The notes: generated from the sequence alone by a model not told the origin. A stretch of 64,000 bases of DNA from Candidatus Sediminicultor quintus (GCA_001773955.1 MEYH01000022.1:3606-67605); one strand, 5' to 3'; positions 4,163-63,736 are shown, counted from the first letter of the stretch. Program-made: numbers and translations.

Positions 4163-4280
4163 GAGATTCGCCCTTATTTACTTATATTACTTATATTGTA
4201 TAATGAGTTGAGATTATCTGGGCGTATGCAATACGCCCTTACTCATTTCTCTTTTTATTTTCTTTACTATATACTCGATA

Positions 4281-5615: not shown

Positions 5616-5691
5616 TTAAATTCCACCAAAATATTCTTTATATTTTCATTCTTGTCTCTTTATTACATTTTTCTTTATTATACTATATCTT

Positions 5692-6252: not shown

Positions 6253-6434
6253 CTTGTACCCGGTACAAAATATTACCTCTTTAAAAAAATATAAATTTAT
6301 TTTCTATTATAGCAGGAATTTTAAATTATTTGTAGAAAGTATATACAGTATCGAATATCGAGTTAAGAAAGCGAAAGAAAAGATAGAAAAAATGGCATTT
6401 TAAGTTTACACTAACCAAGAAGGAGGTTTATTCA

Positions 6435-36595: not shown

Positions 36596-36907
36596 CTATT
36601 TCTTTTTCTCGAATAATCTTCCCAGAATTAATTTATAACCATCTGCGCCATAGTTTAAACACCTTTTTACCCGACTAATAGTAGCGGAACTTGCTCCTGT
36701 TTTATGGGCAATCTCTTCATAAGTAGAGGCCTCGCTTGACATTCGAGCCACTTCCAGCCTTTGGCTAAATTCCTTAATTTCATTGATGGTAGCTAAGTCC
36801 TCAAAAAAACTGTAACATTCCTTTTCGTTTTTTAAGAGTAACATTGCCTTAAATAATTGGTCGGTTAATCCGTCTCTCCAACGAGGATAATCTTCCATTT
36901 TTACCAC
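36596..36907 (-). CDS. YerC/YecD-like TrpR-fold DNA-binding protein
   Basis: 103-aa TrpR-like helix bundle (…ATISRVKRCLNYG…). Confidence 0.6.
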   Translation of the reverse strand: MVKMEDYPRWRDGLTDQLFKAMLLLKNEKECYSFFEDLATINEIKEFSQRLEVARMSSEASTYEEIAHKTGASSATISRVKRCLNYGADGYKLILGRLFEKKK

Positions 36908-36908
36908 C

Positions 36909-37640
36909 TCATTTTCTTCTTTTTTTTAGTTCTTTAAATACATCCTGAGGGGAAATATTGCAACTACCTAAAGCCACTAAAGTATGAAACCATAAATCAG
37001 CCACTTCATGTATTATTGCATTCTTATCTTTATCTTTAAGGGCAATAATAACTTCTGCTGCCTCTTCTCCTATCTTTTTAGGTAACATATCCTCAGAATT
37101 AGCCAGTAATTTACAAATATAAGAATCGCTTTTATAATTTAATTTTCTATCTTGAATTACCTGATATATCTCATGAATAATTTCATGGTCTGTTTCTGGT
37201 TGCTCATCCCCATTCTCCCCTTGAGAAGATTTTGCTCTTTCCGTTGGTTGGTTTCTTAAAAGACCGGGAGGCTCAACATTAATTTCTTCTATTTTATCAC
37301 CTTTTATCTCTTTAAAAAAGCAGGAATAGTGTCCGGTATGACAAGCAACCCCTTTTTGTTCTACTAAAATTAGCATGGTATCATTATCACAATCCAAAAG
37401 AATTTTTTTTACCAATTGAGTATTTCCGGAAGTGCTTCCTTTAAACCATAATTCTCTTCTGCTTCTGCTGTAAAAACAGGTCTTCCCTTCTTCTAAAGTT
37501 TTTTCCAAAGATTCCCTATTTATATAAGCTAACATCAAAACCTGATTGGTTTTCTCGTCCTGAACAATTGCCGGTATTAACCCATCTTTATTAAATTTTA
37601 TTTGATTTAATATTTCACTTTTATCCATTATTCTTCTCAC
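36909..37640 (-). CDS. hisI: Bifunctional phosphoribosyl-AMP cyclohydrolase / phosphoribosyl-ATP pyrophosphatase
   Basis: N-terminal HisI and C-terminal HisE (MazG-like) domains. Confidence 0.85.
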
Positions 37641-38412
37641 TCCTTATTTTCTCCCCTGCCAGTCTTATTTCTATTCCCTTTTGCCACAAAAACTCTTTGA
37701 CTTTTGGTATGGTGTATTCTTTATTATGAAATATGGAAGCAGCTAAAACGGCATCCGCCTTCCCCTTAATCAATACCTCATACAAATGTTCTGGTTTCCC
37801 TGCACCACCAGAAGCAATAACGGGGATATTAACATTTTCTGAAACTATTTTGGTTAATTTTATATCATATCCCTCTTTGGTCCCATCTTTATCCATACTG
37901 GTAAGCAGTATCTCCCCTGCTCCTAACCTTTCCACCTTTTTAACCCAATTTAATATCCTTAAACCTGTCCCGGTTCTTCCTCCATTAATTACAACTTCCC
38001 AATCAGAATCTATCTTCACGGCATCAATAGCCACTACGATAGTAGAACTGCCAAATTTTAAAGAAGCCTCCTGAATCAGGAGGGGGTTTAAAACAGCCGC
38101 CGTATTAATGGATACTTTATCTGCTCCTGCACGTAATAAATAGTATATATCTTCCAGGTTCCTAATCCCTCCCCCTACCGTAAAAGGGATAAAGACTTTT
38201 TCCGCCGTCTTTTCTACTAATTCAATGATAATATTTCTCTTTTCCCAGGAAGCGGTAATATCCAAAAAAACCAGTTCATCTGCTTCTTCTTTCTCATAAA
38301 ATGAAGCTAATTCAATTGGATCCCCCGTATCTATTAAATTAACGAACTTAATTCCCTTTACCACTCGACCTTCCTTTATATCCAGACAGGGTATAATTCT
38401 CTTGGTAAGCAT
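37621..38412 (-). CDS. hisF: Imidazole glycerol phosphate synthase cyclase subunit HisF
   Basis: TIM-barrel HisF motifs (RIIPCLD…, DEL…). Confidence 0.9.
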
Positions 38413-38511
38413 TTTTTAATTCCTCTCTCATATTTAGTTAGCCGGGTTATAGGTTGCAAGTTTAAAATGCCTTTGTAGTAAACTGAAACCTCATTTTATA
38501 CTAATGACTAT

Positions 38512-39240
38512 TTATTCACTAACGACCAATTTAAGTGCCTCTTCCAGTATGATTCGCCCCTTATACAAAGCTTTTCCAATAATAATCCCTTCCAGGTTTG
38601 AATCTTTAATCTTTTTTAACTTTTTAATGTCGTTCAGAGAAGCGATTCCTCCGGAGCAAATAAGGGGAATATTCACATTTTTTAACATCTTTTCTATATT
38701 TGTTATATTAGGTCCCTTAAGAGTCCCATCTCTCTTAATGTCAGAATAAATTATTCGCCTGGCACCTAATCTCTCTATCTCTCCTGCAAAATCTAGGGCA
38801 TCAATAGAAAGAACATTCTGCCACCCTTCTATGGCTACATAACCATCCCGGGCATCAATACCAGCAACAATCTTTTCTGAAAAATCCTCAAACAATTTCT
38901 CGGCCAGGGTCTTATCCTTCCAAAGAATGGTACCTAAAATTACCCGGCTTGCTCCAAGGTTTATCAGATTTTTTACTTCCTGATAACTCCTGATCCCCCC
39001 TCCAACTTGAACAGGGATACTCATTTTCTTAATCATCTTCTCCACCAAAGAGATATTGGTTAATTTGCCATAACGGGCACCGTCCAAATCTACGATATGT
39101 AGCATCTCAGCCCCTTTATCGGCCCAATTTAGCGCTACCTTTATCGGGTCATCGGAAAACACCTCCGTATCGGAAAATTGGCCTTCTCGAAGACGAACAC
39201 ATTTACCTTCTTTAATATCTATAGCAGGAATAATTAACAT
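38512..39240 (-). CDS. hisA: ProFAR isomerase HisA
   Basis: MLIIPAIDIKEGKCVRL… HisA signature. Confidence 0.9.
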   Translation of the reverse strand: MLIIPAIDIKEGKCVRLREGQFSDTEVFSDDPIKVALNWADKGAEMLHIVDLDGARYGKLTNISLVEKMIKKMSIPVQVGGGIRSYQEVKNLINLGASRVILGTILWKDKTLAEKLFEDFSEKIVAGIDARDGYVAIEGWQNVLSIDALDFAGEIERLGARRIIYSDIKRDGTLKGPNITNIEKMLKNVNIPLICSGGIASLNDIKKLKKIKDSNLEGIIIGKALYKGRIILEEALKLVVSE

Positions 39241-39858
39241 TTAACTTAACTCTCCGAAATTCTTTAATATTTTTAAACCTTGTGTACTGCTCTTTTCGGG
39301 ATGAAATTGAACCCCAAATAAATTGCCTTTCCAGATAGAAGAGGGAAAGACCAGACCATAATCAGTTGTAGAATATACCACCTGCGGATTATCTGCTTCA
39401 CAGTAATAAGAATGAACAAAATAAAAATAAGATTCATCCAGAATATCTTGAAAGATAGGATTTGTATTACTATTAGAATTATGAGTAAATTTTATTTTAT
39501 TCCACCCCAGGTGAGGACATTTTACCGAAGCAGGAAACCTTTTCACTCCGCCCGGTATCACATTCAATCCTGAAAATAAACCGCCTTCTTCGCTATAAGT
39601 AAACAATAATTGCATCCCCAGGCAAATACCCAAGAAAGGTTTGCCTGCCTTTATGGCATCAATTAATTCTTTATCTATTTTTTTATTTTTTAAAAATTTA
39701 ATAGCATCCCTAAAAGCCCCTACTCCGGGAAGTACTATAGTGCTGGCTTCCTTAATCCGGTTTGGATCATCGGTTATTTCCGTTTTATATCCGACTTCAG
39801 AAAAAGCATTTTGCACACTCTTTAAATTCCCCATGCCGTAATCTACTATCACCATCAT
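39241..39858 (-). CDS. hisH: Imidazole glycerol phosphate synthase glutamine amidotransferase subunit HisH
   Basis: Start set at MMVIVDYGMGNLKS after an AGGAG RBS; triad Cys in GICLGMQ. Confidence 0.9.
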   Translation of the reverse strand: MMVIVDYGMGNLKSVQNAFSEVGYKTEITDDPNRIKEASTIVLPGVGAFRDAIKFLKNKKIDKELIDAIKAGKPFLGICLGMQLLFTYSEEGGLFSGLNVIPGGVKRFPASVKCPHLGWNKIKFTHNSNSNTNPIFQDILDESYFYFVHSYYCEADNPQVVYSTTDYGLVFPSSIWKGNLFGVQFHPEKSSTQGLKILKNFGELS

Positions 39859-39880
39859 TCTAATTATTCTCCTAATCTTA

Positions 39881-40498
39881 CTAATCAATAATCCCTTTAG
39901 TGGATAGGACATCTTTTAACCGGATATTTTTGCCGGTTGCCTCATTTAAAGCCCGTCCAAAGGCCTTGAATATCCCTTCGATGATGTGATGGGAATTTTT
40001 CCCGTAAAGCAAATTTATATGTAAAGTTATTCCGGCATGAAAAGATAGGGCTCTAAAAAATTCTTCCACCAAACTTACTTCAAAAGAACCCACTCTTTCC
40101 TGCTCAAACTGGACCTTATAGATTAATTGTCCTCTTCCACTAATATCCAAAGCCACCTGTATCAGTGATTCATCCATCGGTAAGATGGTAAACCCATATC
40201 TTTTTATCCCTTTCTTATCTTGCAGGGCATCCTTAAGGGCTTCGCCCAGACAGATTCCTATATCCTCTACGGTATGATGATAATCCACTTTAAGGTCCCC
40301 CTGAGCTTTCACTTCCAGATTAAAAAAACCATGCTGGGAAAATAGGGTAAGCATATGATTTAAAAAATAAATTTCTGTTTCTAAATTATTTATCCCCTTG
40401 CCATCTAATTCCACCTTCACTTCTATTTCAGTCTCCAAACTTTTTCTTTTATATTCACCTTTTCTTTCCTTCAAGGTTATCGACACCTGCCTTTCCAC
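39881..40498 (-). CDS. hisB: Imidazoleglycerol-phosphate dehydratase HisB
   Basis: IGPD motifs (…HH.VED.GI…). Confidence 0.9.
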   Translation of the reverse strand: MERQVSITLKERKGEYKRKSLETEIEVKVELDGKGINNLETEIYFLNHMLTLFSQHGFFNLEVKAQGDLKVDYHHTVEDIGICLGEALKDALQDKKGIKRYGFTILPMDESLIQVALDISGRGQLIYKVQFEQERVGSFEVSLVEEFFRALSFHAGITLHINLLYGKNSHHIIEGIFKAFGRALNEATGKNIRLKDVLSTKGIID

Positions 40499-41526
40499 TA
40501 TTGTCCATTATTTTTAAATCTTTCTAAATAATATAAGATAGAATTAACATCTTTGGTTAATAAATCCACTCCTTCGTTAAGATAGAACTTTACTGACTTA
40601 CCTCGTAAATCAAATCTTTCTCCTAACACTATTGCCGACAAAAACTTTATTTCTCGCTCTTCTTTGTTGGTATTTTTTACAGTAACTAGATCATCCCAAG
40701 TATCACCTATATAAATCCCCAATTTAGTTTTCAAAATTTCAGCTATTCTTTTTAATCCCTGAGGATGAGGTTTTCCAACTCCATCATCAGCTGTAACTAT
40801 ACTTTTTTTAGAAATAATATCATCCCAACCCAATCTTTCTAAGGCTACCCTGGCCTCTCTTTCATTTCTGCCAGTTAAGACACCGAGAGAAAAATTTTCT
40901 AAGAAATTTTTTTTATTTTTATCTATAATTATTCTTTCCTGTTTTATTAAACCTTCTGTCTTAACTAATGAAGGATGAAATCCGTAAATAGTAAAACAGT
41001 ATTCTTCTCCGGCATAAATTTCCTGAAATATTTTAGTAATTAAATCCTTATCCCACAAACTCAATATTCCATCTTTTACGTGCCCATTGTTCTCGATTGA
41101 ATCTATTATTTTAATTAAACCTCCTCCAGGAGATAACGTCTTAGTGGCAAAGGTCTTTATATCAGGTGCACTTCTCTTAAGTTCATCTACGTCCTTTAAA
41201 TTATTTTCCATGGCTTTCATCAGGTAAAACAGAACGACTGCTGAAGTTAAATCCCAGTCATTATTAAAGCCCCCGGCTATTTTAAAATATTCAATCTCTT
41301 CCTGGTTTATTAAATTTTGTGAACCCTGAAAGCGTAATGTCTCTTTAAAATAATATTGAACCGTTTGACATATGGCCTCTCTATAAGAATCACGCACATC
41401 AATCAAGACACCATCAACATCAAAGACCAGGGTATCTACCCGAGAAAGTTTCTCTAAAATCTTCTTATTTAAAATAATCTTTTCTGTGAATAAATAATCT
41501 GAATATAATTTTTCCGAAATCAACAC
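40498..41526 (-). CDS. HAD-superfamily hydrolase in the his operon; candidate histidinol-phosphate phosphatase
   Basis: HAD motif I LVFDVDGVL with a large cap domain, at the position normally held by hisC; the functional assignment is inferred. Confidence 0.5.
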   Translation of the reverse strand: MLISEKLYSDYLFTEKIILNKKILEKLSRVDTLVFDVDGVLIDVRDSYREAICQTVQYYFKETLRFQGSQNLINQEEIEYFKIAGGFNNDWDLTSAVVLFYLMKAMENNLKDVDELKRSAPDIKTFATKTLSPGGGLIKIIDSIENNGHVKDGILSLWDKDLITKIFQEIYAGEEYCFTIYGFHPSLVKTEGLIKQERIIIDKNKKNFLENFSLGVLTGRNEREARVALERLGWDDIISKKSIVTADDGVGKPHPQGLKRIAEILKTKLGIYIGDTWDDLVTVKNTNKEEREIKFLSAIVLGERFDLRGKSVKFYLNEGVDLLTKDVNSILYYLERFKNNGQ

Positions 41527-41687
41527 TAATTAATCAACCCTTTCTTAATTTATTCGACCCGTTTCTATCGTCCTATCTGTCATTCCCGTGGAAACGGGAA
41601 TCTATTTTTTTTTATTCTCTGGCACCTGCGGGCACGATGCATCATGCCCCTACAACTCACTACAGTAATATTCAATTTAATCCTTCG

Positions 41688-42986
41688 TTATGAATTTCTT
41701 ATCTCTATCGAACGGGCATGAGCCTCCAGACCTTCTAACCTGGCTAAACTTACTATTTTTTGGCTATCCTGTCCCAATTTTTCTTTATCATAAAAAATTA
41801 TACTACTCATTTTAGTAAAGTTATTTACCGATAAGGGCGAAAAACATCTTGCTCCGCCGGAAGTAGGTATAATATGGTTGGGCCCTGCCCAATAATCCCC
41901 TAATGGTTCGGGAGCAAATGCTCCCATAAATATTGCCCCGGCATTTTTTATTCCTCCCAACATTTCCCAGGGATTTTCTATCTGTAACTCTAAATGTTCG
42001 GGAGCAAAACAATTGATAAATTTTAAAATCATCGTTACGTCTTCGGCAATTATTAACTTCCCATTTTTTTCTAAAGATTCCTGAATGATTTCTTTTCTCA
42101 CTGAATTTTTTAATTCACCTTCAATTTCCTTTTTTACTTTTTCAACTAATAATGCGGAAGTGGTAATTAAAATTGCCGAAGCCTTTGCATCATGTTCAGC
42201 TTGAGAGAGCAAATCACATGCTAAATATCGGGGGTTAGCCTTTTCATCAGCCCAGATAAGGATTTCACTCGGCCCCGCCAACATGTCTATATCCACTTCT
42301 CCAAATACCATCTTTTTTGACAGGGTTACATAGATGTTTCCCGGACCCACAATTTTATCCACTTTTTTTATTGTTTCTGTTCCGTAAGCCAAAGCAGCTA
42401 TAGCTTGAGCTCCACCTACCTTGTAGATTTCCGTTATGCCCAATTCCCGGGCGGTGGATAATAAATAAGGGTTGATTTTACCTTCGGAAGAGGGAGGGGT
42501 TACTACAATAATCTCTTTAACCCCCGCAATCATTGCCGGTATTGCTGCCATAATAAGAGACGAAGGATAAACAGCCTGTCCCCCCGGAACATACAGTCCA
42601 ACTCTTTCTATGGGATTCACCAACTGTCCTAAAATGATCCCTTTTTCTTCAGTGGTAACCCAGGAATTTTTTTTCTGATGTAAATGATATTTTTCAATTT
42701 TCTTTATTGCCTCTTTTATTATTTCTAATAAATCTGCACTTACTTCCTGGTCGGCACTATCATATTCTTCTTTGCCTATCAGCATTTCGGAAGGACTTAG
42801 CTTGACACCATCATACTTTTCAGTATATTCAAGAAGGGCTTTATCTCCTTCCTTTTTCACCCTGGATATAATTTCACTAACCTTCTTTTCAATATCATGA
42901 ATTAAGCTGTCTTCGGAAAACCTCTGTCGGCAGATCTGTTCTATTTTTTCTTCGTTTTCCTTGTTTAAAAAAATAGTTTTTATCAC
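41688..42986 (-). CDS. hisD: Histidinol dehydrogenase HisD
   Basis: 432 aa with HisD motifs. Confidence 0.9.
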   Translation of the reverse strand: MIKTIFLNKENEEKIEQICRQRFSEDSLIHDIEKKVSEIISRVKKEGDKALLEYTEKYDGVKLSPSEMLIGKEEYDSADQEVSADLLEIIKEAIKKIEKYHLHQKKNSWVTTEEKGIILGQLVNPIERVGLYVPGGQAVYPSSLIMAAIPAMIAGVKEIIVVTPPSSEGKINPYLLSTARELGITEIYKVGGAQAIAALAYGTETIKKVDKIVGPGNIYVTLSKKMVFGEVDIDMLAGPSEILIWADEKANPRYLACDLLSQAEHDAKASAILITTSALLVEKVKKEIEGELKNSVRKEIIQESLEKNGKLIIAEDVTMILKFINCFAPEHLELQIENPWEMLGGIKNAGAIFMGAFAPEPLGDYWAGPNHIIPTSGGARCFSPLSVNNFTKMSSIIFYDKEKLGQDSQKIVSLARLEGLEAHARSIEIRNS

Positions 42987-43074
42987 CTCTAACCAATCCC
43001 TTCTTCAATATTATTTCAATTATTCTTAACACTTTATTTTGACCAGAAGTTTTTAAGTATTTATTCAGCTTGCA

Positions 43075-43758
43075 CTATTCTGCAATTTTACCTGACTCTA
43101 AAGATACAAATTTTTTAATATCCTGTATAAGCCGGGTAATTCTTTCATGTTTAGTCTTATAGCTGATCCTATTAACAATAAGCTGGGCGCTCAAGGGGAT
43201 TATCTCTTCAATTATGGTTAGCTTATTTTCTTTTAGAGTACCCCCGGTAGAAACTATATCGACAATCATATCTGCCAAACCTACCTGGGGAGCTAATTCT
43301 ACCGACCCATAGAGCTTAATTAATTCTACATATATCCCTTTTTCTTTAAAATAATCCCCGGCAATGTGGGGATATTTAGTAGCAACTCTTAATCGATGCC
43401 CGTTATTTTTACAACACTTTTCTTGCTCTCTTCCCTCCGGAGCGGCTAATACCATCTTGCATTTTCCGAATTTTAAATCTATCAACCTATATACATCTTT
43501 TTTTTCTTCTAATAATACATCCTCCCCTACAATCCCGATATCTGCCGCCCCGCATTCGACATAGGTGGGATTATCTTTAGGCCTGGTAATAACAAATTTA
43601 ATCTCCTCTCCCTGGTCAAAAAATGTCAACTTCCTGCTTATCTCTTTCCCACCTTTTAAATCTATTCCTATCCCTTCAAATAATTGGATAGAAGGTTTAA
43701 GTAATATTCCACTGGGCAAAGCAATGACTAAATAATTGGTATTGTTTTCTATACTCAT
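43075..43758 (-). CDS. hisG: ATP phosphoribosyltransferase, short form (HisG-S)
   Basis: 227-aa short HisG lacking the C-terminal regulatory domain, paired with hisZ. Confidence 0.85.
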   Translation of the reverse strand: MSIENNTNYLVIALPSGILLKPSIQLFEGIGIDLKGGKEISRKLTFFDQGEEIKFVITRPKDNPTYVECGAADIGIVGEDVLLEEKKDVYRLIDLKFGKCKMVLAAPEGREQEKCCKNNGHRLRVATKYPHIAGDYFKEKGIYVELIKLYGSVELAPQVGLADMIVDIVSTGGTLKENKLTIIEEIIPLSAQLIVNRISYKTKHERITRLIQDIKKFVSLESGKIAE

Positions 43759-44993
43759 AAGTTTATCATTTCCTTTTTTCCTGATATGACTTCTATTCTG
43801 TTTATTTTGTCTGATTGATGGTCAGCTATAATGAGAATATATTTTATCCCTTTAAGACGGGCATAGCTTAACACCTTATCATATTTTCTTTTGCCTATCT
43901 CTAACTCTACAATCAATCCTTTCTTTCTTAGTTTTTCAGCTGTTATCAGGGCATTTTTAAAATAGGTTGTATTGTTCTGATAATACACTAAATATTTATT
44001 CAGCCTCCCTAACTTTAATGAATTTGCATCTTCTTTTTCCAAAGTAGTAGCTAACCTTTCTATGCCGATAGCAAATCCGGTGGAGGGTAAGTCCTCCCCA
44101 AATTTTGAACATAGATTATCATATCTTCCCCCGCCGCATATCGGAAATCCCATATAATCGGTATAGCCTTCGAATATAATGCCGGTATAATAATCAAAAT
44201 CACGTATGATCCCCAAATCTATTAAAATATATTCTTCCAATCCGTAATCTCTTAACAGATGATAAACCTCTTTTATCTCTTTTAAAGCAGCTGCCGATAG
44301 TTGGTTGTCTATTATCTTCTCCGCCTCTTCTAACACCTCTTCTTTTCCTCTTAAGGTGGGCATTTTCAAAATATATTCTTTTTCTTTAGCCTTTATATCT
44401 TCAATAGATAATATCTTTTCCAGTAATACAAAATTTTTATTTAGAATTACATCTTTTATTTCTTGTTTTCTTTCCTCTTTAACTTTTATCGATTGCATAA
44501 TTCCATTAAATAAATTGATATGACCTATGTCTATAAAAAATTTCCTAAGCCCACTATTCTTCAAACTCTCCACCGCTAAAGCAATAACCTCTGCATCCGC
44601 CTCTTTGCTATTTACTCCTATTAGCTCTACCCCTGCCTGGCAAAACTCTCTTTGGTTTCCCACTTTATCATCATACCTAAATACATTCCCTATGTAATAC
44701 AATCTCGATGGTTTTGGCTCTAGTTGCATTTTAGTCGAAGCTACTCTGGCAATAGAAGTAGTTATCTCAGGGCGAAAAGCAATAATATTTCCTTCTCGGT
44801 CAAAAAACTTAATCATTTCCTTTTTCATAATTGACCCTGCACCCTTTGCCAGTATTTCATAAAATTCAAAAGTAGGAGTAATGATCTCTTGGTAACCCCA
44901 TTGGGTAAAAATCTTACTTATTCTATTTTCCAATAATCTCCTCTTTAAAACTTCTCCTGGCAACAAATCATTTAAACCTTTAGGAATATTCAT
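43755..44993 (-). CDS. hisZ: ATP phosphoribosyltransferase regulatory subunit HisZ (HisS paralog)
   Basis: Class II aaRS-like catalytic core without an anticodon-binding domain, immediately upstream of short hisG. Confidence 0.8.
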   Translation of the reverse strand: MNIPKGLNDLLPGEVLKRRLLENRISKIFTQWGYQEIITPTFEFYEILAKGAGSIMKKEMIKFFDREGNIIAFRPEITTSIARVASTKMQLEPKPSRLYYIGNVFRYDDKVGNQREFCQAGVELIGVNSKEADAEVIALAVESLKNSGLRKFFIDIGHINLFNGIMQSIKVKEERKQEIKDVILNKNFVLLEKILSIEDIKAKEKEYILKMPTLRGKEEVLEEAEKIIDNQLSAAALKEIKEVYHLLRDYGLEEYILIDLGIIRDFDYYTGIIFEGYTDYMGFPICGGGRYDNLCSKFGEDLPSTGFAIGIERLATTLEKEDANSLKLGRLNKYLVYYQNNTTYFKNALITAEKLRKKGLIVELEIGKRKYDKVLSYARLKGIKYILIIADHQSDKINRIEVISGKKEMINL

Positions 44994-45084
44994 CTACCAT
45001 ACCTCATCCTTAACCCTTGTTTTTTTCTAAATTTAATTTTCATTCTTTAATACGTTAAAGTATTAACGAGTAAAATTTAGAGAA

Positions 45085-45113
45085 ATATTAACATTGTTTT
45101 AGAATTTTGTCAA
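45085..45113 (-). promoter_or_regulatory. Candidate sigma-70 promoter of the his operon
   Basis: Minus strand TTGACA-N17-TAATAT, about 95 nt upstream of the hisZ start. Confidence 0.4.
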
Positions 45114-45259
45114 ATTTTTTACTTTACTCTTTTTGTATTGAAAAAAATAATGTAGCTTTTATTGAATACTAGTCATTAATGCAAAAATAGCAATAAATTG
45201 GAAAATTGAGGAGCAGAAAATCATTTTAAAATAAGGGTTTTAGGGGTAAGGGTAAATAG

Positions 45260-46204: not shown

Positions 46205-46356
46205 ATTATTTCTTTCCGGAAACCTCTTTCAAAATCCCATTTTTAATAAACTTGGTTAATATATTATAGATGGTTTGATAACTCCTGTTTTTAAGCCGTT
46301 TTTTAATACTGACAAAAGAAACTAAAGTGTCAATCATTTATTTAAAAACGAGAATT

Positions 46357-46550
46357 TATGGGGTCAGGTCTTGCAATATCACTTTTCATCTTCCCGCTCA
46401 ATTTCTTTAAGCCCTTTGCTTACCGTAGTATAATGCAGGTAAATATACTGCTATATCTTCTAAGGTATAGCCATGGTGTCTCCCTCAATTTTTTTTACCT
46501 CTTATCAAGAGTTTTATCTTATCTGTTATATTGCAAGACCTGACCCCATA
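46357..46550. mobile_element. MITE-like element with 22-bp perfect terminal inverted repeats
   Basis: Left end TATGGGGTCAGGTCTTGCAATAT (46357-46379) is the exact inverse complement of the right end ATATTGCAAGACCTGACCCCATA (46528-46550). About 150 bp of non-coding AT-rich filler lies between them. Confidence 0.6.
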
Positions 46551-53814: not shown

Positions 53815-53915
53815 TTATTTCCACCTCAATATTGGTTGTACGATGTATGACATCTTAATCATAACAAAAAAATATTCTTTGTCAAATATTTTTTCTTTTT
53901 TGCTAAAAATTTATT

Positions 53916-53938
53916 TATGGGGTCAGGTCTTGGAATAT
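53916..53938. repeat. Solo copy of the MITE terminal repeat
   Basis: TATGGGGTCAGGTCTTGGAATAT, 22 of 23 identical to 46357-46379. It overlaps the last codons and the stop of the 53923-54834 gene. Confidence 0.5.
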
Positions 53939-54834
53939 GACTTTTCCTCTTCCTCCTTATCTCTCAGCCAGATATTTGCTGCCTCAGGACTCTCCTGCCT
54001 TGGTAATAACCTAATGGCATTGTTTGGGCATTTCGCCCTACACAAGCCACACCCGAAACACCTGGTGGGATCGATATACACCTTAGAAAGCGCAGATGAG
54101 TAAAACTGAGCCCCGAACTGACATTGACTCATACAAGATTTGCACCCTGCACAGAGTTCCAAATCTATCTGGCAGACATACTCTGCCCGGAAGAAGTGAG
54201 GAGCACCTCGCTTCTCAATATACCCCTTGTAGGCTCCACAATCACGATCACAATTACACATACCTACAACATAAGGGGTTACTCCTGTCCAAATGCTATG
54301 TATCAGCCCTTCCTTATCATATTGGCGAAAAATTCTCTTGGTCTCCTCCTGGTCAAGCACCTCCAGGGATGAAGCGGCATCCGGAAACTTACCCAATATA
54401 TTCCATTTATCCATCCCTAGACCGAAACAGTATCGTTTATCTGTCTTTCCTGTGGTAATGAACCGGCATCCACAAGGCATTCTCGTAATAGAGTCTATCA
54501 TATCTATCACTCTTTCAACATCCTCGATGGGCAGTACTTGACCGAAATGTTCGACCTTCCGATGTGCCACCAGCTCATCTTCACTGGGTTGAACCTCAGG
54601 AAGCTCAGTTGATGACGGAACATCTGGTAATCCCTTTTGTGTCTTGGACACCCTGCCAATGGCCGGTATCACAAAAGTCTCCCAGAAGCAATTGTTCCAC
54701 TCGAAACGCGTTGTAGCTCCAACGATGCCCTTTTGAGCGGCAGAAAGCTCCTCATGGAGTAATTCTTCGGCGTAATTCTTCATTTGGAGATACCATTTCT
54801 TCCCCTCGCCGTGTTCAGTACAAAACTCGCACAT
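53923..54834 (-). CDS. Fe-S cluster-binding protein with two 4Fe-4S ferredoxin motifs; paralog of 15082-16356
   Basis: CAGCKSCMSQC and CFGCGLCRAKCP motifs plus a CGCRF…CNCDRDC block; the C-terminal 6 aa and stop are encoded within the repeat. Confidence 0.6.
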   Translation of the reverse strand: MCEFCTEHGEGKKWYLQMKNYAEELLHEELSAAQKGIVGATTRFEWNNCFWETFVIPAIGRVSKTQKGLPDVPSSTELPEVQPSEDELVAHRKVEHFGQVLPIEDVERVIDMIDSITRMPCGCRFITTGKTDKRYCFGLGMDKWNILGKFPDAASSLEVLDQEETKRIFRQYDKEGLIHSIWTGVTPYVVGMCNCDRDCGAYKGYIEKRGAPHFFRAEYVCQIDLELCAGCKSCMSQCQFGAQFYSSALSKVYIDPTRCFGCGLCRAKCPNNAIRLLPRQESPEAANIWLRDKEEEEKSYSKT

Positions 54835-55129
54835 TTTGCCCTCCTTCCGTTACAAAAGTAAGCGAATAGATTAAGCCCCTCGATCCTCCAATATAGGTTT
54901 TCTCAAAGTTTTCTCCTCTTCGCTTTTCTGCAACATTAAGTAATTTTATATATAATATTTTACGAAAATAAGAAATATTTTACTCCTTAACATTAAATTC
55001 TTTCTTATTATTTTATTAAATCAAAACCAAAACATAATTTTTGATTTATTTTAATGCTTCTGTAACTTTCTTCTGAAAATCTTCTTAATTTAAATACACA
55101 TCCTATTTTTTCTATTGTTTAGCGTTCCA

Positions 55130-55650
55130 TTTTACAAGGTCTTCCGTTAGGAAGTCTATCTATGACAATACCTGAAGTCCCAACCCTCTTGATAAGAAAC
55201 TACTCAGCTTCTATAGGTTGTCACGGTAGGACAGCCAGTTACCTGACTGCCCCCGCACAAATCCCAGCGTGCGGAATTACCGCACTGGGCTCTTCAGAAA
55301 TACTCGCTTCCATAGCTGATCCGAATCCCTATAAGCCATCAGTCATCCTCTCTTTTCATCCCTGTAGACTTACCTTATAGTAAGTGAGCTTATAGGGTCT
55401 CCCAAGTTCTTTATATCTCTCTACAGACCTGCCATGTGCCAAGACCTCGACAGACCCTCTTTAGAATCTCGCCATATGCGATTCTTTTGTGTAGGCTTCC
55501 GTTACGGAAACGACGCCGCTGTCTTGCATTAATCTTTATTTACGAGGCTGTATAGTTCACTTTAAGGAAGTACGGCCTTCCTTATGGCCTATCTGTTTCC
55601 CGGTGTACGCTCCTGCCTGCAGCAGACAGGTCATCTAATGGTTACCCATT
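55130..55650 (+). ncRNA. Candidate large structured non-coding RNA of unknown class
   Basis: About 520-nt ORF-free core with clearly higher GC than its flanks and many local and long-range complementary segments (for example cccagcgtgcgg/ccgcactggg and ccctataagc/gcttataggg). The strand is uncertain; a + strand terminator lies at 56005-56030. Confidence 0.3.
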
Positions 55651-55949
55651 TTGATGCAACACTCCATTAGACTATTAATTAAGAATATATTAAAATAAAT
55701 TAAAGTTTATTAAATTAAATCAGGTACCGAATAAAGAAGGCTGAATAAGTCTATGAACACTCAAAAGAAAAACTTATATTCCGAATAAGACGAAAGCCTT
55801 CTTGATGATTAAAGCTAAATAGTGCTTTCGTCGCTAAAAACGACTATTAATGGAGTAAGCTCATATCATCGTTTATTCGGCCAAGGAAAGGAATATTTAT
55901 TATGAAAAAGAACTTGTTTTTTAGATGTTGCTTACATAATATTCTTAAT

Positions 55950-56297
55950 TTAAAAAATATTTAGCTGGTACATATTCTCTTTATGGTAAAACCATTTGGC
56001 CATTACCACCTTCAAAGAAGGTGGTTTTTTAAGGTTAAATAAATCGTCACTGACTTCTTGACTGACCTTACCCCATTCCTCTTTACCTACCAGTATTTCT
56101 GAGGAATTCAGTCTTGCTCTATCATACTTTTTCGTAAACTCAAGAAGGGCGTTGTCTCCTTCCTTTTTCACTTTTAATATAATTTCTCTTACCTTATCTT
56201 TAATATCCTCTGACAGGTTATCTTCAGAATACTTATGTCTGCAGACCTCTTTTATTTTTTCCTTATTTTCTCTGTTTAAAAAAATGGTCTCTATCAA
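55950..56297 (-). pseudogene. Diverged duplicate of the hisD 5' end (N-terminal fragment of about 90 aa)
   Basis: MIETIFLNRENKEKIKEVCRHKYSEDNLSEDIKDKVREIILKVKKEGDNALLEFTKKYD… is about 60% identical to HisD residues 1-90 and then diverges. The upstream 35 bp also resemble the hisD leader. Confidence 0.6.
56005..56030 (+). terminator. Rho-independent terminator on the + strand
   Basis: ACCACCTTC-AAA-GAAGGTGGT followed by TTTTTT; embedded in the hisD-like fragment. Confidence 0.5.
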
Positions 56298-56447
56298 CTT
56301 TTAATCCATCCCTTCTCTTGCAATATTTCAGATATTTTTTTAGAAATTTATTTTAGACAATCATTCTATTTATCAGTCTCTTTCTCGCATTGGCGCTTTA
56401 TGATATAATCGTTTAATGAAAAAATTAATGAGTTGTTGTAAGGAGTA

Positions 56448-59400
56448 ATGATGGTTACCAGAAAAAATTTCGGGCGTACCTGGTGGGGAAATGCCTGGAT
56501 AGAAGCAATGGCACGAATTGATCACGATACCAACCGCTTGCCCAGAGGCAGAAGTTATGCCAACGGTGGTAGAGTACAAGAGATTCAGATTTGTAACGGT
56601 ATTGTGGAAGCAAAAGTAAAAGGTAGGCAACGAAAACCTTATCAAGTAACAATTTACTTGCAAAAATTTACCCCGGAACAACTTTCGAAAATACAATCCT
56701 GTATCGCCGAAGATCCAGCCTTGGCCTCCGAATTGGCTTTGGGAAAACTACCGGAAGAGATGCTGAATCGGCTTGCTCAGGAAAATATCTCTCTTTTACC
56801 GACTACCTGGCAAGAGCTTAACGCAAACTGCTCCTGTCCCGACTGGGCCAACCCCTGCAAGCACCTCGCTGCAGTCTACTACCTTATTGCCAATGAAGTG
56901 GATAAAAATCCCTTTATTTTGTTTCACCTACGAGGTGTGGAAACCAACACACTAATGCAGGCCGCCGGTTTTGTAGAACCTGTCACGGCTGCTGAAAACG
57001 AAGAAACTTTTATCCCTTATATACAGATAAAAGTTCCCATCAAAGACAATAAAAAGGATAATAAAGTCGAACCCGAGTTTTCTTCAATTTTAAGTTCCCT
57101 TTCTCAAGAAAAGGATAGTGCTGCCATTTTTGCCCTGCTGGAAGAATCTCCTTTGTTTTACCCCGAGGCTAATTTTAAACAGATCCTCTTTAAAGCTTAT
57201 CATAATATAACAAACCATATCAAACAATTACAGCTACTGGAAGAGTTCCCCAGTTGGTCAAAGTCAAATATTTGCCTGCTCGATCCGGGAATTAAGGTCT
57301 ACCACCCCTTGTCCGAAACATCTTTTTTTATTTTTCTTCCCAAAAAAATCTCGGAAGGTTTGGAAGGTCCATCAAAAATAATTACCGTTCCCGAAGACCT
57401 GGGCGGGAAGCTAATTCTAAAAAAGAAAAAGGGAATTCTATTGCCTGCAGCAACCTTAATTGATTACTTTATAAGACTACCACTGCAGCTTTCTTCTGAA
57501 GAGAGCTCCCCTGAGGTAAGATTAATCAGCATCGCGACCACTATAGCCTTAGCCCTGGCCAGGGAATCAGCATTTGTGCCACAGATAAGGAATGACCAAA
57601 AAGGTAACTTTTTTGTGCGTTATATGCCCCTTAACCAGCTGAAAGTCACTGAAAAAGCCCTGGACTTTCTGGCCGGCCTCATTCCGGTAACCTTTCTTTA
57701 TCGAAAAGAAGAAAAATCTCTTCTTATAAGGCGAGATGCCGCCAGGTCTCTTTTATCACTTATTCTGACCTATATTGTGCATCGCTTTGCCGGGATCAAA
57801 GAAAGTAATAAGCTTTGTAACACCTTTTTTAATGGGGACTATTACCCGGTTCAGGACTTTACCGAAAGGCAGACCGCCAGGGTAATTACCAACTGGCTAA
57901 GCATATTAAACTTAAGTGGGAATGAAATTTCCCCGGCAATTAGGATAGAAATACCTCAGGGTAAAAAAACTCTTTTTCAGTTACAGGTGGAGGTAGAAAA
58001 CAAAAAAGATCCCCTCTCCCCACTTCTCCCTTTAGCGGATGTATTTACGACAAAAAAAACTATTTTCTCTCATCCCATTGAAATGGTGCGCTTTACCCTA
58101 GCCCACCAAATTTCTACAGCCTCTACTTATTTCCCGCCTCTAAAAACGGTTCTCAGCAGTAAAGGAAAGAAGTCACCCCTTATCGACCCTCTGGAAGTGG
58201 CCAGATTTATCCAAAATGGCCAACATATCTTTAATATGCTTGGCATACGCGTGATTGTGCCCAAAGAATTAAAAATACTTAGCTCACCTCAGCTGTCTCT
58301 GGCAGCTAAGCTTAAAGCCAGCGAGAAGCAAAACATTTCTTATTTTAACCTGGAAGAAATGTTAACCTTCTCCTGGGAAGTGGCTCTGGGTGATCTTAAA
58401 CTAACGCGAAAAGAATTTCTTCAGCTGGTCAAATCGGCAGCAGGGGTAGTAAAATTCAAAGAGCACTATCTGTTACTTCAGCCTGAAGAAGTAGCGCAAA
58501 TAGTTAAAAAGCTAAACCAACCCTTGCCTAAACTATCTTCTGCAGAAATAATGCAAGCATCACTAACCGGACAAACCGCCAATATTTTTTTTCATTCTGA
58601 TGATAAACTCCGCAAAATGATAGATGAGCTTACCAAGTTCAAAGTGGTCAAACTCCCAAAAAGCCTAAAAGCAGTGCTTCGACCCTACCAGAAGCGAGGT
58701 TTTCAGTGGCTCTACTCTAACGCTGACAAAGGGCTCGGTTCCTGCCTGGCCGATGATATGGGATTGGGTAAAACCATCCAGGCGATTACCCTTATTTTAA
58801 AACTGAAAGAAGAGAAAAAACTGGACCATCCTGCACTGGTAATTTGCCCGACTACCCTGGTCGGTAACTGGCTGAAGGAATGCAACAAATTTGCCCCATC
58901 CTTAAAAGCATTGACATATCACGGACCAGAACGTCAGCTTATTACCTCTCTACCTGTGCGTGTACGCACCTGTCTGCGTGCGTACACGCACAGGCAGGCG
59001 CAGACAGGTCACGCCGATTTAGTCATTACCACATATGGGCTATTGCGCCGTGAAGTTGAAAAATTTAAAAAAAGAAACTGGGATCTTATTATTATTGATG
59101 AAGCTCAAAATATAAAAAATGCAGATAGTAAGCAGACCAAAGCGGTTAAAGCATTAAAAGCCAGGGGCACTATCGCCTTAAGCGGAACGCCGGTAGAAAA
59201 TCGCCTGAGTGAGCTCTGGAGTATTTTTGATTATTTAATCCCAGACTACCTGGGAACCCGGCAGAATTTTATGCGTCGTTTTGCTATGCCCATCGAAAAG
59301 TACCGTGACCAGAGAAAAATCGCCTTATTACAAAAAGCCACCGCTCCTTTTATTATGCGCCGCATGAAGACAGATCGTTCCATCATACAGGATTTACCGG

Positions 59401-60128
59401 ATAAGATAGTAAAAAATGAATACTGTTACCTGAGCAAAGAACAAACTGCTATCTACCAGCGTGTTGTAGATACCAATATACAGGAAATTTCCAATAGTGA
59501 AGGAATCGCGCGCCGGGGACTTGTTTTCAAGTTAATGACCTCTCTAAAACAGATCTGTAACCACCCGGTTCACTATACCAAAAAAGGAACTGTGGTCAAG
59601 GAACATTCGGGTAAAGCAGAGATGACCATTTCTCTACTGAAAAAGATTATATCCGCCAGGGAAAAAGTGCTCTTGTTCACCCAATACAAAGTGATGGGGA
59701 ATCTACTGGTACAACTAATCCAGACAGAACTTCAGATAGTGCCTCTCTTTTTTCACGGCAGCCTCACCCGGAAAAAACGAGAAATGATGATTGAGGATTT
59801 CCAGAACGGCAATTGCTCCCCAATTATGATTATCTCACTGAAAGCAGGAGGCACCGGCCTTAACCTGACCGCCGCAACCAACGTCATCCACTACGACCTT
59901 TGGTGGAACCCTGCCGTAGAAGCACAGGCAACCGACCGTACTCACCGTATCGGCCAAAGCAGGAAGGTATTTGTACACCGGCTTATTACTATCGGTACAT
60001 TTGAAGAAAAAATTGATGAAATGATCAGCGCCAAAAAAGAGTTGGCTGAGTTAACTGTTTCTACCGGTGAAAAATGGCTCAGCGAACTCTCCAACCAGGA
60101 ACTGAAAGAAATATTTAAGCTAAGCTAA
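56448..60128 (+). CDS. SWIM zinc-finger / SNF2-family DNA-dependent ATPase (helicase)
   Basis: N-terminal SWIM CSCPDWANPCKHLAAV; SNF2_N LADDMGLGKTIQAI and DEAQNIKN; helicase-C motif DLWWNPAVEAQATDRTHRIGQ. Confidence 0.9.
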   Translation: MMVTRKNFGRTWWGNAWIEAMARIDHDTNRLPRGRSYANGGRVQEIQICNGIVEAKVKGRQRKPYQVTIYLQKFTPEQLSKIQSCIAEDPALASELALGKLPEEMLNRLAQENISLLPTTWQELNANCSCPDWANPCKHLAAVYYLIANEVDKNPFILFHLRGVETNTLMQAAGFVEPVTAAENEETFIPYIQIKVPIKDNKKDNKVEPEFSSILSSLSQEKDSAAIFALLEESPLFYPEANFKQILFKAYHNITNHIKQLQLLEEFPSWSKSNICLLDPGIKVYHPLSETSFFIFLPKKISEGLEGPSKIITVPEDLGGKLILKKKKGILLPAATLIDYFIRLPLQLSSEESSPEVRLISIATTIALALARESAFVPQIRNDQKGNFFVRYMPLNQLKVTEKALDFLAGLIPVTFLYRKEEKSLLIRRDAARSLLSLILTYIVHRFAGIKESNKLCNTFFNGDYYPVQDFTERQTARVITNWLSILNLSGNEISPAIRIEIPQGKKTLFQLQVEVENKKDPLSPLLPLADVFTTKKTIFSHPIEMVRFTLAHQISTASTYFPPLKTVLSSKGKKSPLIDPLEVARFIQNGQHIFNMLGIRVIVPKELKILSSPQLSLAAKLKASEKQNISYFNLEEMLTFSWEVALGDLKLTRKEFLQLVKSAAGVVKFKEHYLLLQPEEVAQIVKKLNQPLPKLSSAEIMQASLTGQTANIFFHSDDKLRKMIDELTKFKVVKLPKSLKAVLRPYQKRGFQWLYSNADKGLGSCLADDMGLGKTIQAITLILKLKEEKKLDHPALVICPTTLVGNWLKECNKFAPSLKALTYHGPERQLITSLPVRVRTCLRAYTHRQAQTGHADLVITTYGLLRREVEKFKKRNWDLIIIDEAQNIKNADSKQTKAVKALKARGTIALSGTPVENRLSELWSIFDYLIPDYLGTRQNFMRRFAMPIEKYRDQRKIALLQKATAPFIMRRMKTDRSIIQDLPDKIVKNEYCYLSKEQTAIYQRVVDTNIQEISNSEGIARRGLVFKLMTSLKQICNHPVHYTKKGTVVKEHSGKAEMTISLLKKIISAREKVLLFTQYKVMGNLLVQLIQTELQIVPLFFHGSLTRKKREMMIEDFQNGNCSPIMIISLKAGGTGLNLTAATNVIHYDLWWNPAVEAQATDRTHRIGQSRKVFVHRLITIGTFEEKIDEMISAKKELAELTVSTGEKWLSELSNQELKEIFKLS
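58953..58995. repeat. GC-rich perfect 17-bp-stem palindrome inside the SNF2 helicase ORF
   Basis: CCTGTGCGTGTACGCAC-ctgtctgcg-GTGCGTACACGCACAGG, part of a roughly 66-nt block that is about 65% GC and encodes LPVRVRTCLRAYTHRQAQTGHA in frame. Confidence 0.5.
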
Positions 60129-60224
60129 TTCTTCGGGATACCTTTCTCTTGAAATTTGCATGTGGAAGATGTATAATCATTGTAGATACATTTTATAGTT
60201 CATTTTTTGAAAGGAAGGTGCTAT

Positions 60225-60467
60225 ATGCAAACTAAGATTAAAAAATGGGGTAACAGTCTGGCATTACGAATTCCCAAATTATTAGCATTAGATGTAAACC
60301 TAAAGCTAAATGAATTGGTTGATTTATCTATTGATAAGGATAGTATTATTATTACGCCAATCGGCGAAAAAGAATATTCGCTCGAAAAACTTTTAAAAGG
60401 CATTACTAAAAACAATCTTCACGGAGAATTTAACACCGGGGCACCGGTTGGAAAAGAAAACTGGTGA
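60225..60467 (+). CDS. mazE: MazE/AbrB-type antitoxin
   Basis: MQTKIKKWGNSLALRIPK SpoVT/AbrB swapped-hairpin motif; RBS GGAAGG; overlaps mazF by 4 nt. Confidence 0.8.
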   Translation: MQTKIKKWGNSLALRIPKLLALDVNLKLNELVDLSIDKDSIIITPIGEKEYSLEKLLKGITKNNLHGEFNTGAPVGKENW

Positions 60468-60814
60468 TGGCGGGCAATTTTATTCCGCATAGAGGTGATG
60501 TGGTTTGGATAGATATGCAGCCTCAAGCCGGCCATGAACAATCCGGAAGACGTCCGGCAATCGTTCTGTCGCCAAAATCTTATAATGGTAAAGTTGGCCT
60601 GGCCTTATTGTGTCCGATAACCAACCAAATAAAAGGATATCCTTTTGAAGTTATTATTCCATCCAGATTAAGGGTAGTAGGGGTTGTTTTATCAGATCAG
60701 GTAAAAAGCCTTGATTGGAAAATTAGAAATGCCGAATTCTGTGATAAAGTACCTGAGACTGTGGTTTTGGAAATATTTAAAAAACTTGAGACACTGCTAA
60801 ATTTTGATAGGTAG
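60464..60814 (+). CDS. mazF: MazF/PemK family endoribonuclease toxin
   Basis: 116-aa PemK-like protein (GDVVWIDMQPQAGHEQSGRRPAIVLSP). Confidence 0.85.
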   Translation: MMAGNFIPHRGDVVWIDMQPQAGHEQSGRRPAIVLSPKSYNGKVGLALLCPITNQIKGYPFEVIIPSRLRVVGVVLSDQVKSLDWKIRNAEFCDKVPETVVLEIFKKLETLLNFDR

Positions 60815-61601
60815 TGTTTTATTGTTTTTTATTCGATTAACCAGCGTATCTTGCGTTAATATTGCTTTATGTCGCGCTCTGGCAACCTGTTCCCCAATAC
60901 AAAGATTTTGGTATTCCTTGTCAAATTTCTCGCGAAATTCTTTATTTTCCATATCACTTTTTATCTTCCTGCTTTAATTTTTTTCATCGCCTTGCTCACT
61001 GTAGTATATTCACATCAATATATTCTGCTATCTATTTTGTCATATTGCAAGACCCTATATAATTGCTTATATCTGGGGAAAATGTGTAAAACCTGTGGGA
61101 AAATACCTTCTTGAAAGCCTTATATAATAAGGGTTTCAAGAGAATATCGCGAGGATTGCTTGTACGAGCAAATTTTGCCTTAACTGATACTTTACCCCTC
61201 AAAAATAGTACTTTTTTAGCTAAAATTCCATCATCTCAAAATCTGAAAGTGGTTATTTATAAGGGTTTAAGGATTTCGGGGAGGCAAAAATAGGCCAAAA
61301 ACGGGGGTCGTAATTGCTGATTTTTCGAAATTTGAAGCGCGTTTAAAGGCACTCTACGTGCGTTTTTAGGGCATTCCTGAAGGGGGTCTTAAACCATTAC
61401 AGATAAAGGGTTTTAAAGATAGTAAATAGAAACATAGAATCATTGTCCCCTTTTCCTCTTGTGGACTTTAGCACCATGCGCCTTACGAAAATTTAGAAAA
61501 AGTTATGAATTATTGATCTATGATTTCTATCCTCGTGATAAACCATTGAGACAGCTCTATATCTTAAACACGCAAACTATTCTTACGAGATATTAAACTG
61601 C

Positions 61602-62952: not shown

Positions 62953-63736
62953 CTATATCTCAGTTATTTCTTCATACAGTTCTGGTAAGCAATTTTGACG
63001 TAATCTAAACTTAGTTCCGTGATTATGTCCTGTCCTCGCATCAAAATCCACTAAAGCTTTGTTCTCTTCTAAGGCTTTGATAAATATGTCTATACTAAAT
63101 TTTTGTAACATTAAAATTTTATTATAATGAAAATACTCTTTACCATCTTTTTTCTTGACTTGAGCTTGAACATAAAAACAATTAATCAGCTTTGTGCCTG
63201 CTTTGTGAAATAGATCATCAAAACCCCAATAAGGCTGCGGATTTATTTCATCTAAACCAATTCTTTTATTTACTGATGCAACCCAATCTGAATGATATTC
63301 TGCAACGGTATTTGAGTTAAAAGAAACTAACATTTTTCTTTCACTCCTATTAATAACTATTTTAAAACCTCTGTCACTTCTATTCTTACCACCAATAGTT
63401 TGTCGAAAACTCATTTCATTTTTAGGATAACGAGTCTCAGCTTCTTTATGAGGACAGCCATATTTTGAGTAAAAATATTCGGGGTACAAATTTTAAGGCT
63501 CTTGGGGAAGGTTCCATATGAAATAAAGTTGTTGAAGATGAAGTATTTGCTCTTTGAGTTTTTAATTTCCATTCAGCAGCATTTGGAATTGGTAAATTAT
63601 TTTCTTTAATCCCAAGTAAATCTTCTAAAGTATTTCCAATGCCTCCTACGTTTCCTGGTCTTGTATTTTTTATCCAACCCATCTCTTTTATTTTTCTTAA
63701 TTCTAGAATTAATTGATCCTTAGTAAATATTTCCAT
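62953..63736 (-). pseudogene. Frameshifted MutH/Sau3AI-family (MvaI/BcnI-like) type II restriction endonuclease gene
   Basis: Two overlapping ORFs in different frames (63446-63736 and 62953-63489). The N-terminal part carries the MutH-like motif GNVGGIGNTLEDLLGIKENN…AEWKLK. Confidence 0.5.

Follow-up and report, generated by a model that had tools for sequence, protein, structure and literature searches.

We identified a truncated copy of the histidinol dehydrogenase gene hisD in a 64,000-nt stretch of DNA from Candidatus Sediminicultor quintus (GCA_001773955.1 MEYH01000022.1:3606-67605), hereafter the window, to which coordinates refer unless a contig is named. It is very probably an inert relic of a his operon that once lay directly beside a gene for a SNF2 helicase, and of which two lesions have left an intergenic spacer and 86 codons of hisD. 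Pseudogene relics of this type are ordinary and already known. A preliminary description had recognized its similarity to the hisD gene resident in the same window, and had explained it by an old duplication of the resident hisG-hisD junction. The similarity is genuine; the explanation fails, as the stub is 93.7% identical to its counterpart in the related contig L143 versus ~76% to the resident gene, with synonymous divergences (dS) of 0.11 and ~1.0, respectively.

A hisD stub next to a SNF2 helicase gene

The open reading frame (ORF) at 55950-56297 on the minus strand aligns by BLASTP, without gaps, with the N-terminus of the resident HisD (41688-42986, minus strand), with 54 of 91 residues identical (59%), 80% positives and an E-value of 5e-35. 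This is clear of background and in keeping with the ~60% over the first ~90 residues noted earlier. In a blastn comparison within the window, 56075-56327 matched 42764-43012 with 76.7% nucleotide identity over 257 nt (E 6e-31), and the match runs on for ~26-45 nt upstream of the start codon to include the ribosome-binding region, bearing out the remark that the leaders resemble each other. The similarity of the stub to hisD is far beyond chance, which confirms the earlier observation. Residues 27-86 of the ORF are recognized by the Pfam model PF00815 (36 bits, cut-off 27); with TIGR00069, whose cut-off is 243.8 bits, the stub scores 27.7 bits over 50 of the 393 model positions, versus 540 bits for the full-length, 432-aa resident hisD. 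Given that both score and coverage fall far short, the stub is a fragment and not a second hisD, and the earlier view of it as a hisD 5' end that was cut short, has lost its function and retains the spacer ahead of it is supported. The resident gene sits in an intact hisZ-hisG-hisD-HAD-hisB-hisH-hisA-hisF-hisIE operon. A tblastn search found no further HisD-, HisG- or HisZ-like or other his pieces elsewhere in the window, including the DNA past the group II intron fragments considered below.

The hisD-derived DNA proper occupies 56038-56374 on the minus strand and comprises a 77-nt spacer, 86 codons and 2 nt. Its coding part (56038-56297) begins with a TTG start, is in frame and collinear with the intact hisD of the relatives, and breaks off two bases into codon 87, its last letters being still those of native hisD (GATTTATT). 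The remnant of the hisG-hisD intergenic spacer (56298-56374), which carries the ribosome-binding site AGAAGGGATGG, aligns with 9924-10000 of the related contig L014 and 4406-4493 of L143. It begins 7-24 nt past the position of the hisG stop codon in the relatives and hisG coding sequence is absent, contrary to the idea that the hisG-hisD junction itself had been copied. The 115-codon ORF is a chimera in which 86 codons of hisD and one junction codon are followed by 28 codons from a mobile element; in GCA_001767595.1 (Candidatus Atribacteria bacterium RBG_16_35_8) it bears the annotation hypothetical protein A2V94_04095. The extent first given for the feature, 55950-56447, holds for 56038-56374 alone, the remainder being mobile element (55950-56037), a junction (56375-56379) and the upstream region of the SNF2 gene (56380-56447).

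A scan of species-representative genomes with the ORF as query returned normal his operons of other Atribacterota, from which the affinities of the two copies could be read. The DNA of the stub is most similar to L143 (93.7%), followed by L014 (93.2%), L016 (92.1%), L015 (91.1%) and L018 (86.7%), the last a record labelled Candidatus Sediminicultor tertius. The alignment of 56038-56386 with L143 4146-4493 gives the value of 93.7%, and the coding part alone is 94.3% identical at the nucleotide level. The resident operon is 81-85% identical to these same contigs. Compared over HisD residues 1-88 with the clade formed by L011 and L014-L017, the stub has 78-86% identity (86% to L014) and the resident protein 59-66%. 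Past residue 88, the members of this clade are 92-95% identical to each other and the resident protein is 82-84% identical to them. The N-terminal 88 residues are just 68-89% identical within the clade and evolve fast in all lineages.

Adjoining the stub is a gene for a SWIM/DUF3670/SNF2 helicase (56448-60128, plus strand; domains from Pfam), orthologs of which are present in many atribacterial contigs with 87-93% amino acid identity. Three relatives have his genes divergent from it: in L014 the SNF2 gene (4178-7783, minus strand) is followed by hisZ, hisG and hisD on the plus strand; in L143 it is divergent from hisZ-hisG-hisD-HAD-hisB-hisH-hisA, with the contig ending at hisA; and in L148 from the his promoter and hisZ. 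The check proposed earlier, of the same locus in relatives, thus reveals hisG and hisD in L143 and L014, and in L148 the promoter and hisZ. The SNF2 DNA of the window is 91-95% identical to that of these three contigs, about level with the stub. Relative to L143, the window is missing L143 4494-6559, a segment of 2066 nt that contains hisZ and hisG together with the his promoter and 7 nt of spacer. As the relatives carry a his operon beside the SNF2 gene, the window retains that same locus minus the promoter, hisZ and hisG (~2.07 kb), and the stub is the ortholog of the 5' end of hisD from the SNF2-adjacent operon. With the promoter-hisZ-hisG segment gone, the stub is without its native promoter, and a pattern scan found no minus-strand promoter-like site above the ORF.

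At the deletion junction, the upstream sequence of the SNF2 gene (…AATGCGAGAAAG, 56380) is followed by five unmatched bases and then by the hisG-hisD spacer (GATAAATAG…, 56374). The five bases (56375-56379), AGACT on the minus strand, match neither side in comparisons with L143, L014, L144 and L142. The SNF2 gene's own upstream region (56380-56447, plus strand) is conserved in L143, L144, L142 and L148, and its edge, …GAGAAAG, is shared at window 56380, L143 6560, L144 9930, L142 111 and L148 1026; the match to L014 ends 8 nt earlier, at window 56388. Beyond this edge lie, variously, the his operon, a LacI sugar cluster, another region or the stub, the four relatives presenting three different neighbors. 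The upstream limit of the SNF2 unit is a point at which rearrangement has recurred, and because this end point is shared by relatives with differing neighbors, the present arrangement could have been reached otherwise than by simple deletion from an ancestor like L143. On the other flank of the SNF2 gene, a mazE-mazF pair (60207-60814) constitutes an extra insert with respect to L014, L143 and L144. A ~350-nt stretch (61059-61416), devoid of ORFs of at least 100 aa, follows the SNF2 gene in L014 and L144 with 76-87% identity, and has as its counterpart in L143 a 74-nt match (82%), after which that contig ends.

The IS200/IS605-type end and the repeats beyond it

The DNA abutting the stub is the truncated left end of an IS200/IS605-type element, specifically of a non-autonomous derivative: 55924-56037 (minus strand) corresponds to the first ~114 nt of a ~255-nt miniature element. 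From 56043/44 to 55924 the window is 94-97% identical over ~120 nt to what we term 'type B' copies in L025, L048, L071, L125, L028 and L060; neither the right end of the element nor tnpA was found anywhere in the window. Full copies of the family are ~570-585 nt long and encode a 147-aa TnpA, which in the L058 copy is recognized by PF01797 (Y1_Tnp) with 146.6 bits and by NF033573 with 152.9 bits. The miniature form of ~255 nt has both ends (right end …GCCACCTGCTTAGCGGGTGGATTCTTTAC) and no gene. Full and miniature copies alike bear the right-end hairpins GCCTCTTTTAGAGGC and CCACCTGCTTAGCGGGTGG; the copy in the window has the left-end hairpin only. The segment at 55077-55222 was considered as a candidate right end and rejected, being a different repeat that lies beyond the right end in L058.

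A terminator scan located the left-end hairpin, ACCACCTTC-TTT-GAAGGTGGT, at 56005-56025 (element nt 13-33). It has a 9-bp stem and a 3-nt loop, a DNA folding energy of -8.7 kcal/mol (z -2.3), and is followed on the plus strand by TTTTTT at 56026-56031. It has the makings of an intrinsic (Rho-independent) terminator, and by analogy with IS200 it putatively terminates transcription in vivo. The plus-strand terminator of the preliminary description (hairpin and T-run, 56005-56031) is accordingly real, but it belongs to the element and did not arise within the stub. Likewise, the ORF does depart from hisD where this had been noticed, though at an abrupt element junction and not by gradual decay. 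As the divergence of the ORF and the internal terminator both coincide with the element, they are one thing, namely its truncated left end.

This left end is part of an abundant family. In an exact-pattern scan, at least 120 metagenome contigs from sediments and aquifers (loci L022-L141) carry the hairpin; as the hairpin was the fixed pattern of the scan, the independent evidence from these copies lies in the conserved left-end sequence that flanks it. Among the matches listed, 109 distinct left flanks have an information content of at most 0.33 bits per position, which then exceeds 1.4 bits at TTTATTT. The conserved start reads TTTATTT(C)ACCTTAAAA or TTTATTT(C)ACCTTAAAAAACCACC, and the flanks before that point are unrelated. 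We write the target as TTTAT(T), with the insertion boundary given to within TTTATT/T. All six aligned hisD genes natively have (G)ATTTATT at codons 85-87, and the stub departs from hisD directly after it. The tail of the chimeric ORF, LKKPPSLKVVMAKWFYHK, also terminates two unrelated proteins, P0005 (with an ATP-grasp N-terminus of the succinyl-CoA-synthetase type) and P0006, whose contigs have the same element end followed ~70 nt further on by the start of an IS200-type transposase gene. Tandem right-end/left-end joints are present in L030, L063 and L072, and may hint at transposition activity and a single-strand mechanism.

Members of the IS200/IS605 family insert 3' of a specific tetra- or pentanucleotide and have subterminal hairpins (PMC3597680), and the left end of IS200 has a terminator hairpin at nt 12-34 (PMC4513863). 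The present elements agree with the family in that their full copies encode a Y1 (HUH) TnpA, their hairpins are subterminal at both ends and they insert immediately 3' of a short conserved target, here TTTAT(T), and with IS200 in the placement of the left-end hairpin (nt 13-33 here versus nt 12-34). Their short ~255-nt forms, which retain the two ends alone, resemble the palindrome-associated or MITE-like derivatives of IS200/IS605. They differ in that the window copy is a left end only, without tnpA, and in that the T-run of the hairpin is on the strand opposite to tnpA. A 16-codon plus-strand ORF at 55903-55953, MKKNLFFRCCLHNILNL, has a good ribosome-binding site; situated immediately upstream of the hairpin and T-run and in part within the truncated element, it is probably fortuitous.

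The first of the two lesions, we propose, would have been the insertion of an IS200/IS605 miniature element into hisD 3' of TTTAT(T), or alternatively the recombination of a copy already resident there with another copy. Everything beyond the element junction would have been replaced, leaving the truncated element, other repeat debris and group II intron fragments, and the reading frame by chance stays open for 28 codons into the element, which yields the 115-aa ORF. The second would be the ~2.07-kb deletion that took away the his promoter, hisZ, hisG and the first bases of the spacer, and fused what remained of the latter to the DNA ahead of the SNF2 gene (56375-56380). We infer this order of events, with the deletion following once the operon was redundant. 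A full his operon of another lineage 11 kb away supplies histidine biosynthesis, which is presumably why the relic could be lost. The earlier view of the locus as a footprint of rearrangement and mobile DNA acquisition is thus substantiated by the IS200/IS605-type end on one side and the 2.07-kb deletion junction on the other.

Further repeats lie beyond the element. Pieces of a group II intron occupy 55215-55665 on the minus strand, with domains 1-4 at 55435-55665 and domains V-VI at 55220-55294; their Rfam scores (RF02005, 42.4 bits; RF00029, 35.5 bits) are both sub-threshold, and they have no reverse-transcriptase ORF. The same-species contig L004 is without these pieces and diverges after 55662, and 55098-55376 recurs downstream of the SNF2 gene of L144 with 89% identity. 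Insertion of a class-C-type group II intron had been a candidate explanation for the end of the stub and was rejected, the pieces being ~340 nt away and unrelated in sequence to the introns that directly follow the hairpin in other contigs. The Rfam scan of the region yielded nothing pertinent to the stub, and the matches to RnaG (23.6 versus 153 bits) and ylbH (17.3 versus 50 bits) are noise.

We also observed a separate connection between group II introns and the element family. In at least five contigs (L038, L055, L084, L096 and L131), group II introns start 0-4 nt past the left-end hairpin, at GGTAATGG/TGTGCGCC, and for L038 the intron (6085-7927, minus strand) is confirmed by Rfam (RF02001, 144 bits; RF00029, 40 bits). 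This placement suggests that the introns home to the element hairpin, much like bacterial introns that target terminators. Other repeats of the window include a 140-nt AT-rich segment (55662-55801) with repeated CCGAATAA motifs, which is 91% identical, in inverted orientation, to L018 3333-3470, a part of the hisD-HAD spacer of that contig, and which probably represents a further small repeat element. Two direct copies of a 41-nt repeat (92.7% identical; 46354-46394 and 53913-53953) bracket a cluster of TRAP-transporter, NagA-like, NagB-like, SIS and GntR genes. A related ~80-nt repeat is present at 46376-46454 and, after mazEF, at 60951-61031; both repeats could be island borders or intergenic repeat elements. 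A gene for a MvaI/BcnI-family restriction endonuclease (62953-63736, minus strand) appears to be split into two overlapping ORFs at 62953-63489 and 63446-63736, likely as a frameshift or pseudogene.

Histories of the two his loci

Sliding identity profiles against L143, L015 and L017 on the one hand and L145 and L147 on the other reveal the resident his operon (36596-45119) to be a mosaic of at least two atribacterial lineages. Its promoter and the 5' part of hisZ are 91-96% identical to the lineage of the stub, as are HAD and the 5' part of hisF (88-94%). In between, the 3' part of hisZ, hisG and hisD are 83-91% identical to L145/L147 versus 67-87% to the stub lineage. Directly ahead of the resident his promoter, 45120-45258 has a match in L011 only. 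Such a mosaic implies a history of several recombination events, and for the same reason the identity profiles give no verdict on which operon is native. We consider it about evenly poised that the SNF2-adjacent operon was the native one and that all or parts of the present operon came in by import; this slight leaning stems from the fact that the resident segments of the stub lineage match at the same 93-95% as the SNF2 gene and the stub. Import of the SNF2 gene with its adjacent piece of operon is a reasonable but lesser prospect, and the balance is left to histories other than these two.

A more elaborate version of the first history has a miniature element inactivating the native his operon next to SNF2 and an imported foreign his block then making good the loss, so that the stub would be the displaced original. 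In such an operon replacement the abundant miniature elements would supply portable homology for one crossover and the his genes for the other. We regard it as improbable, and a variant with expression and co-option of the chimeric 115-aa ORF is weaker still.

A function of the ORF or its transcript in its own right, be it as a small protein with the HisD N-terminus or as a decoy or regulatory RNA with the hisD ribosome-binding region, is distinctly improbable. Its frame is open, with start codon and ribosome-binding site intact, and it is exactly preserved in six same-species contigs and differs by a single residue in the protein of the NCBI metagenome-assembled genome (MAG), P0001. However, the same-species copies are too close to reveal selection, and with five private substitutions the stub offers no power for a dN/dS test of relaxed constraint. 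Moreover, the native his promoter is deleted and no minus-strand promoter-like site lies above, 50 of 393 hisD model positions are covered, and the frame runs only by accident through the last 28 codons, which belong to a transposon end that closes unrelated ORFs as well. With so little of hisD, no promoter, a transposon-derived tail and 80% of the protein lost, the ORF is most likely inert.

The explanation originally put forward, an ancient duplication of the resident hisG-hisD junction within this genome followed by slow decay, would account for two copies that are on the same strand, 13 kb apart, and share both spacer and 5' coding region, and yet we hold it to be very improbable. By the Nei-Gojobori method, dS between the stub and the resident hisD is ~1.0, versus 0.11 between the stub and L143; this rules out a simple within-genome duplication. 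The divergence from the resident gene also exceeds that between L018 and the clade of L143 and the stub (0.46). A duplication of the resident gene must therefore predate the species split, and yet the stub is almost undecayed: it has five private substitutions (two synonymous, three non-synonymous) and an undisrupted frame, which also tells against the statement that the copy has since decayed. The copies thus come from different lineages. In accord with this, the stub is 93-94% identical to orthologs in other genomes, and SNF2 genes neighbor his operon DNA in three relatives. The resident hisD, whose 5' end is 89-91% identical to the lineage of L145/L147 like the rest of the gene, belongs by its sequence to a lineage distinct from that of the stub.

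Still less probable is the insertion of an integrative island into the 5' end of hisD that brought a replacement 5' end along and left the original at its far border, in the manner of attL and attR. Such an event would be in line with a stub of the 'expected' lineage, with the unusual divergence of resident codons 1-88 (59-66% versus 82-84% for the rest) and with the accessory genes between the two hisD copies. Against it, every lineage changes quickly over the N-terminal 88 residues, and the resident gene is as close to L145/L147 at its 5' end (89-91%) as over the remainder. An intact hisZ-hisG, not island DNA, precedes the resident hisD; a Pfam search of the 45-56 kb interval, covering ORFs with a length of 100 aa or more, found no integrase or recombinase; and the two ends share hisD homology but no core repeat, the end of the stub being an IS200/IS605 left end.

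The arrangement recurs in other assemblies. The exact ORF and the exact resident HisD are both present in RBG_16_35_8 contigs (GCA_001767595.1) and in several re-assemblies of similar samples. The exact relic ORF is present in six contigs from separate assemblies (L001-L006: five from ENA and one from a Logan run), several of which probably derive by re-assembly from one set of Rifle data; across the relic-element junction they are 98.5-100% identical to the window. The SNF2-relic junction is spanned by L001-L005; L006 starts at window 56513 and has 66 nt of SNF2 only. An assembly or binning chimera, in which the stub of a co-occurring strain's normal his operon was mis-joined, would suit a repeat-rich area where short-read contigs break, in samples of a kind that hold Atribacterota with a stub-type operon, but it deserves hardly any weight, as both the SNF2-spacer and the hisD-element junctions lie within L001-L005 at 98.5-100%, so that the error must have recurred identically twice, and the NCBI MAG has the same ORF adjoining SNF2. 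Toward the resident operon, L001-L006 all break or diverge between 55830 and 55323, in a repeat-rich stretch, and none reaches the gene for a 4Fe-4S protein, for which a look-up gave no exact record. The interval ~54830-55320 is bridged by no contig examined, and probably none bridges from ~53950, near which the longest contig of the resident operon (the parent of L009) is expected to end. The 11-kb distance between stub and resident operon consequently rests on the assembly of the window itself.

Comparison with known systems and implications

The relic of the SNF2-adjacent operon has the hallmarks of a pseudogene made by an insertion sequence: it meets an element end abruptly at the preferred target of that element, its promoter and the greater part of its coding region are gone, and a functional copy is present elsewhere. 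It departs from that pattern in that only ~114 nt of the element remain and the right-hand flank is not hisD, which implies either later rearrangement after the insertion or a junction made by recombination between element copies. In xenologous gene displacement, genes of an operon are replaced in place by horizontally acquired versions, resulting in mosaic operons. The window is reminiscent of this general pattern in having two his loci of different lineages in one region, the survivor a patchwork and the other a stub; it differs in that the exchange may have run in either direction, and in place or not.

The stub itself matters little beyond annotation, where A2V94_04095 should read as a hisD remnant fused to a transposon end, and neither as a hypothetical protein nor as a second hisD. 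Possibly more useful are two by-products of its analysis, namely an abundant IS200/IS605 family in the Atribacterota-related contigs and sediment metagenomes examined, with a TTTAT(T) target and a 255-nt miniature form, and the group II introns that insert right after the hairpin of this element. For the organism, the stub marks that its lineage once carried, or received, a second his operon beside the SNF2 gene, and the his operons of this group of Atribacterota are recombination mosaics.
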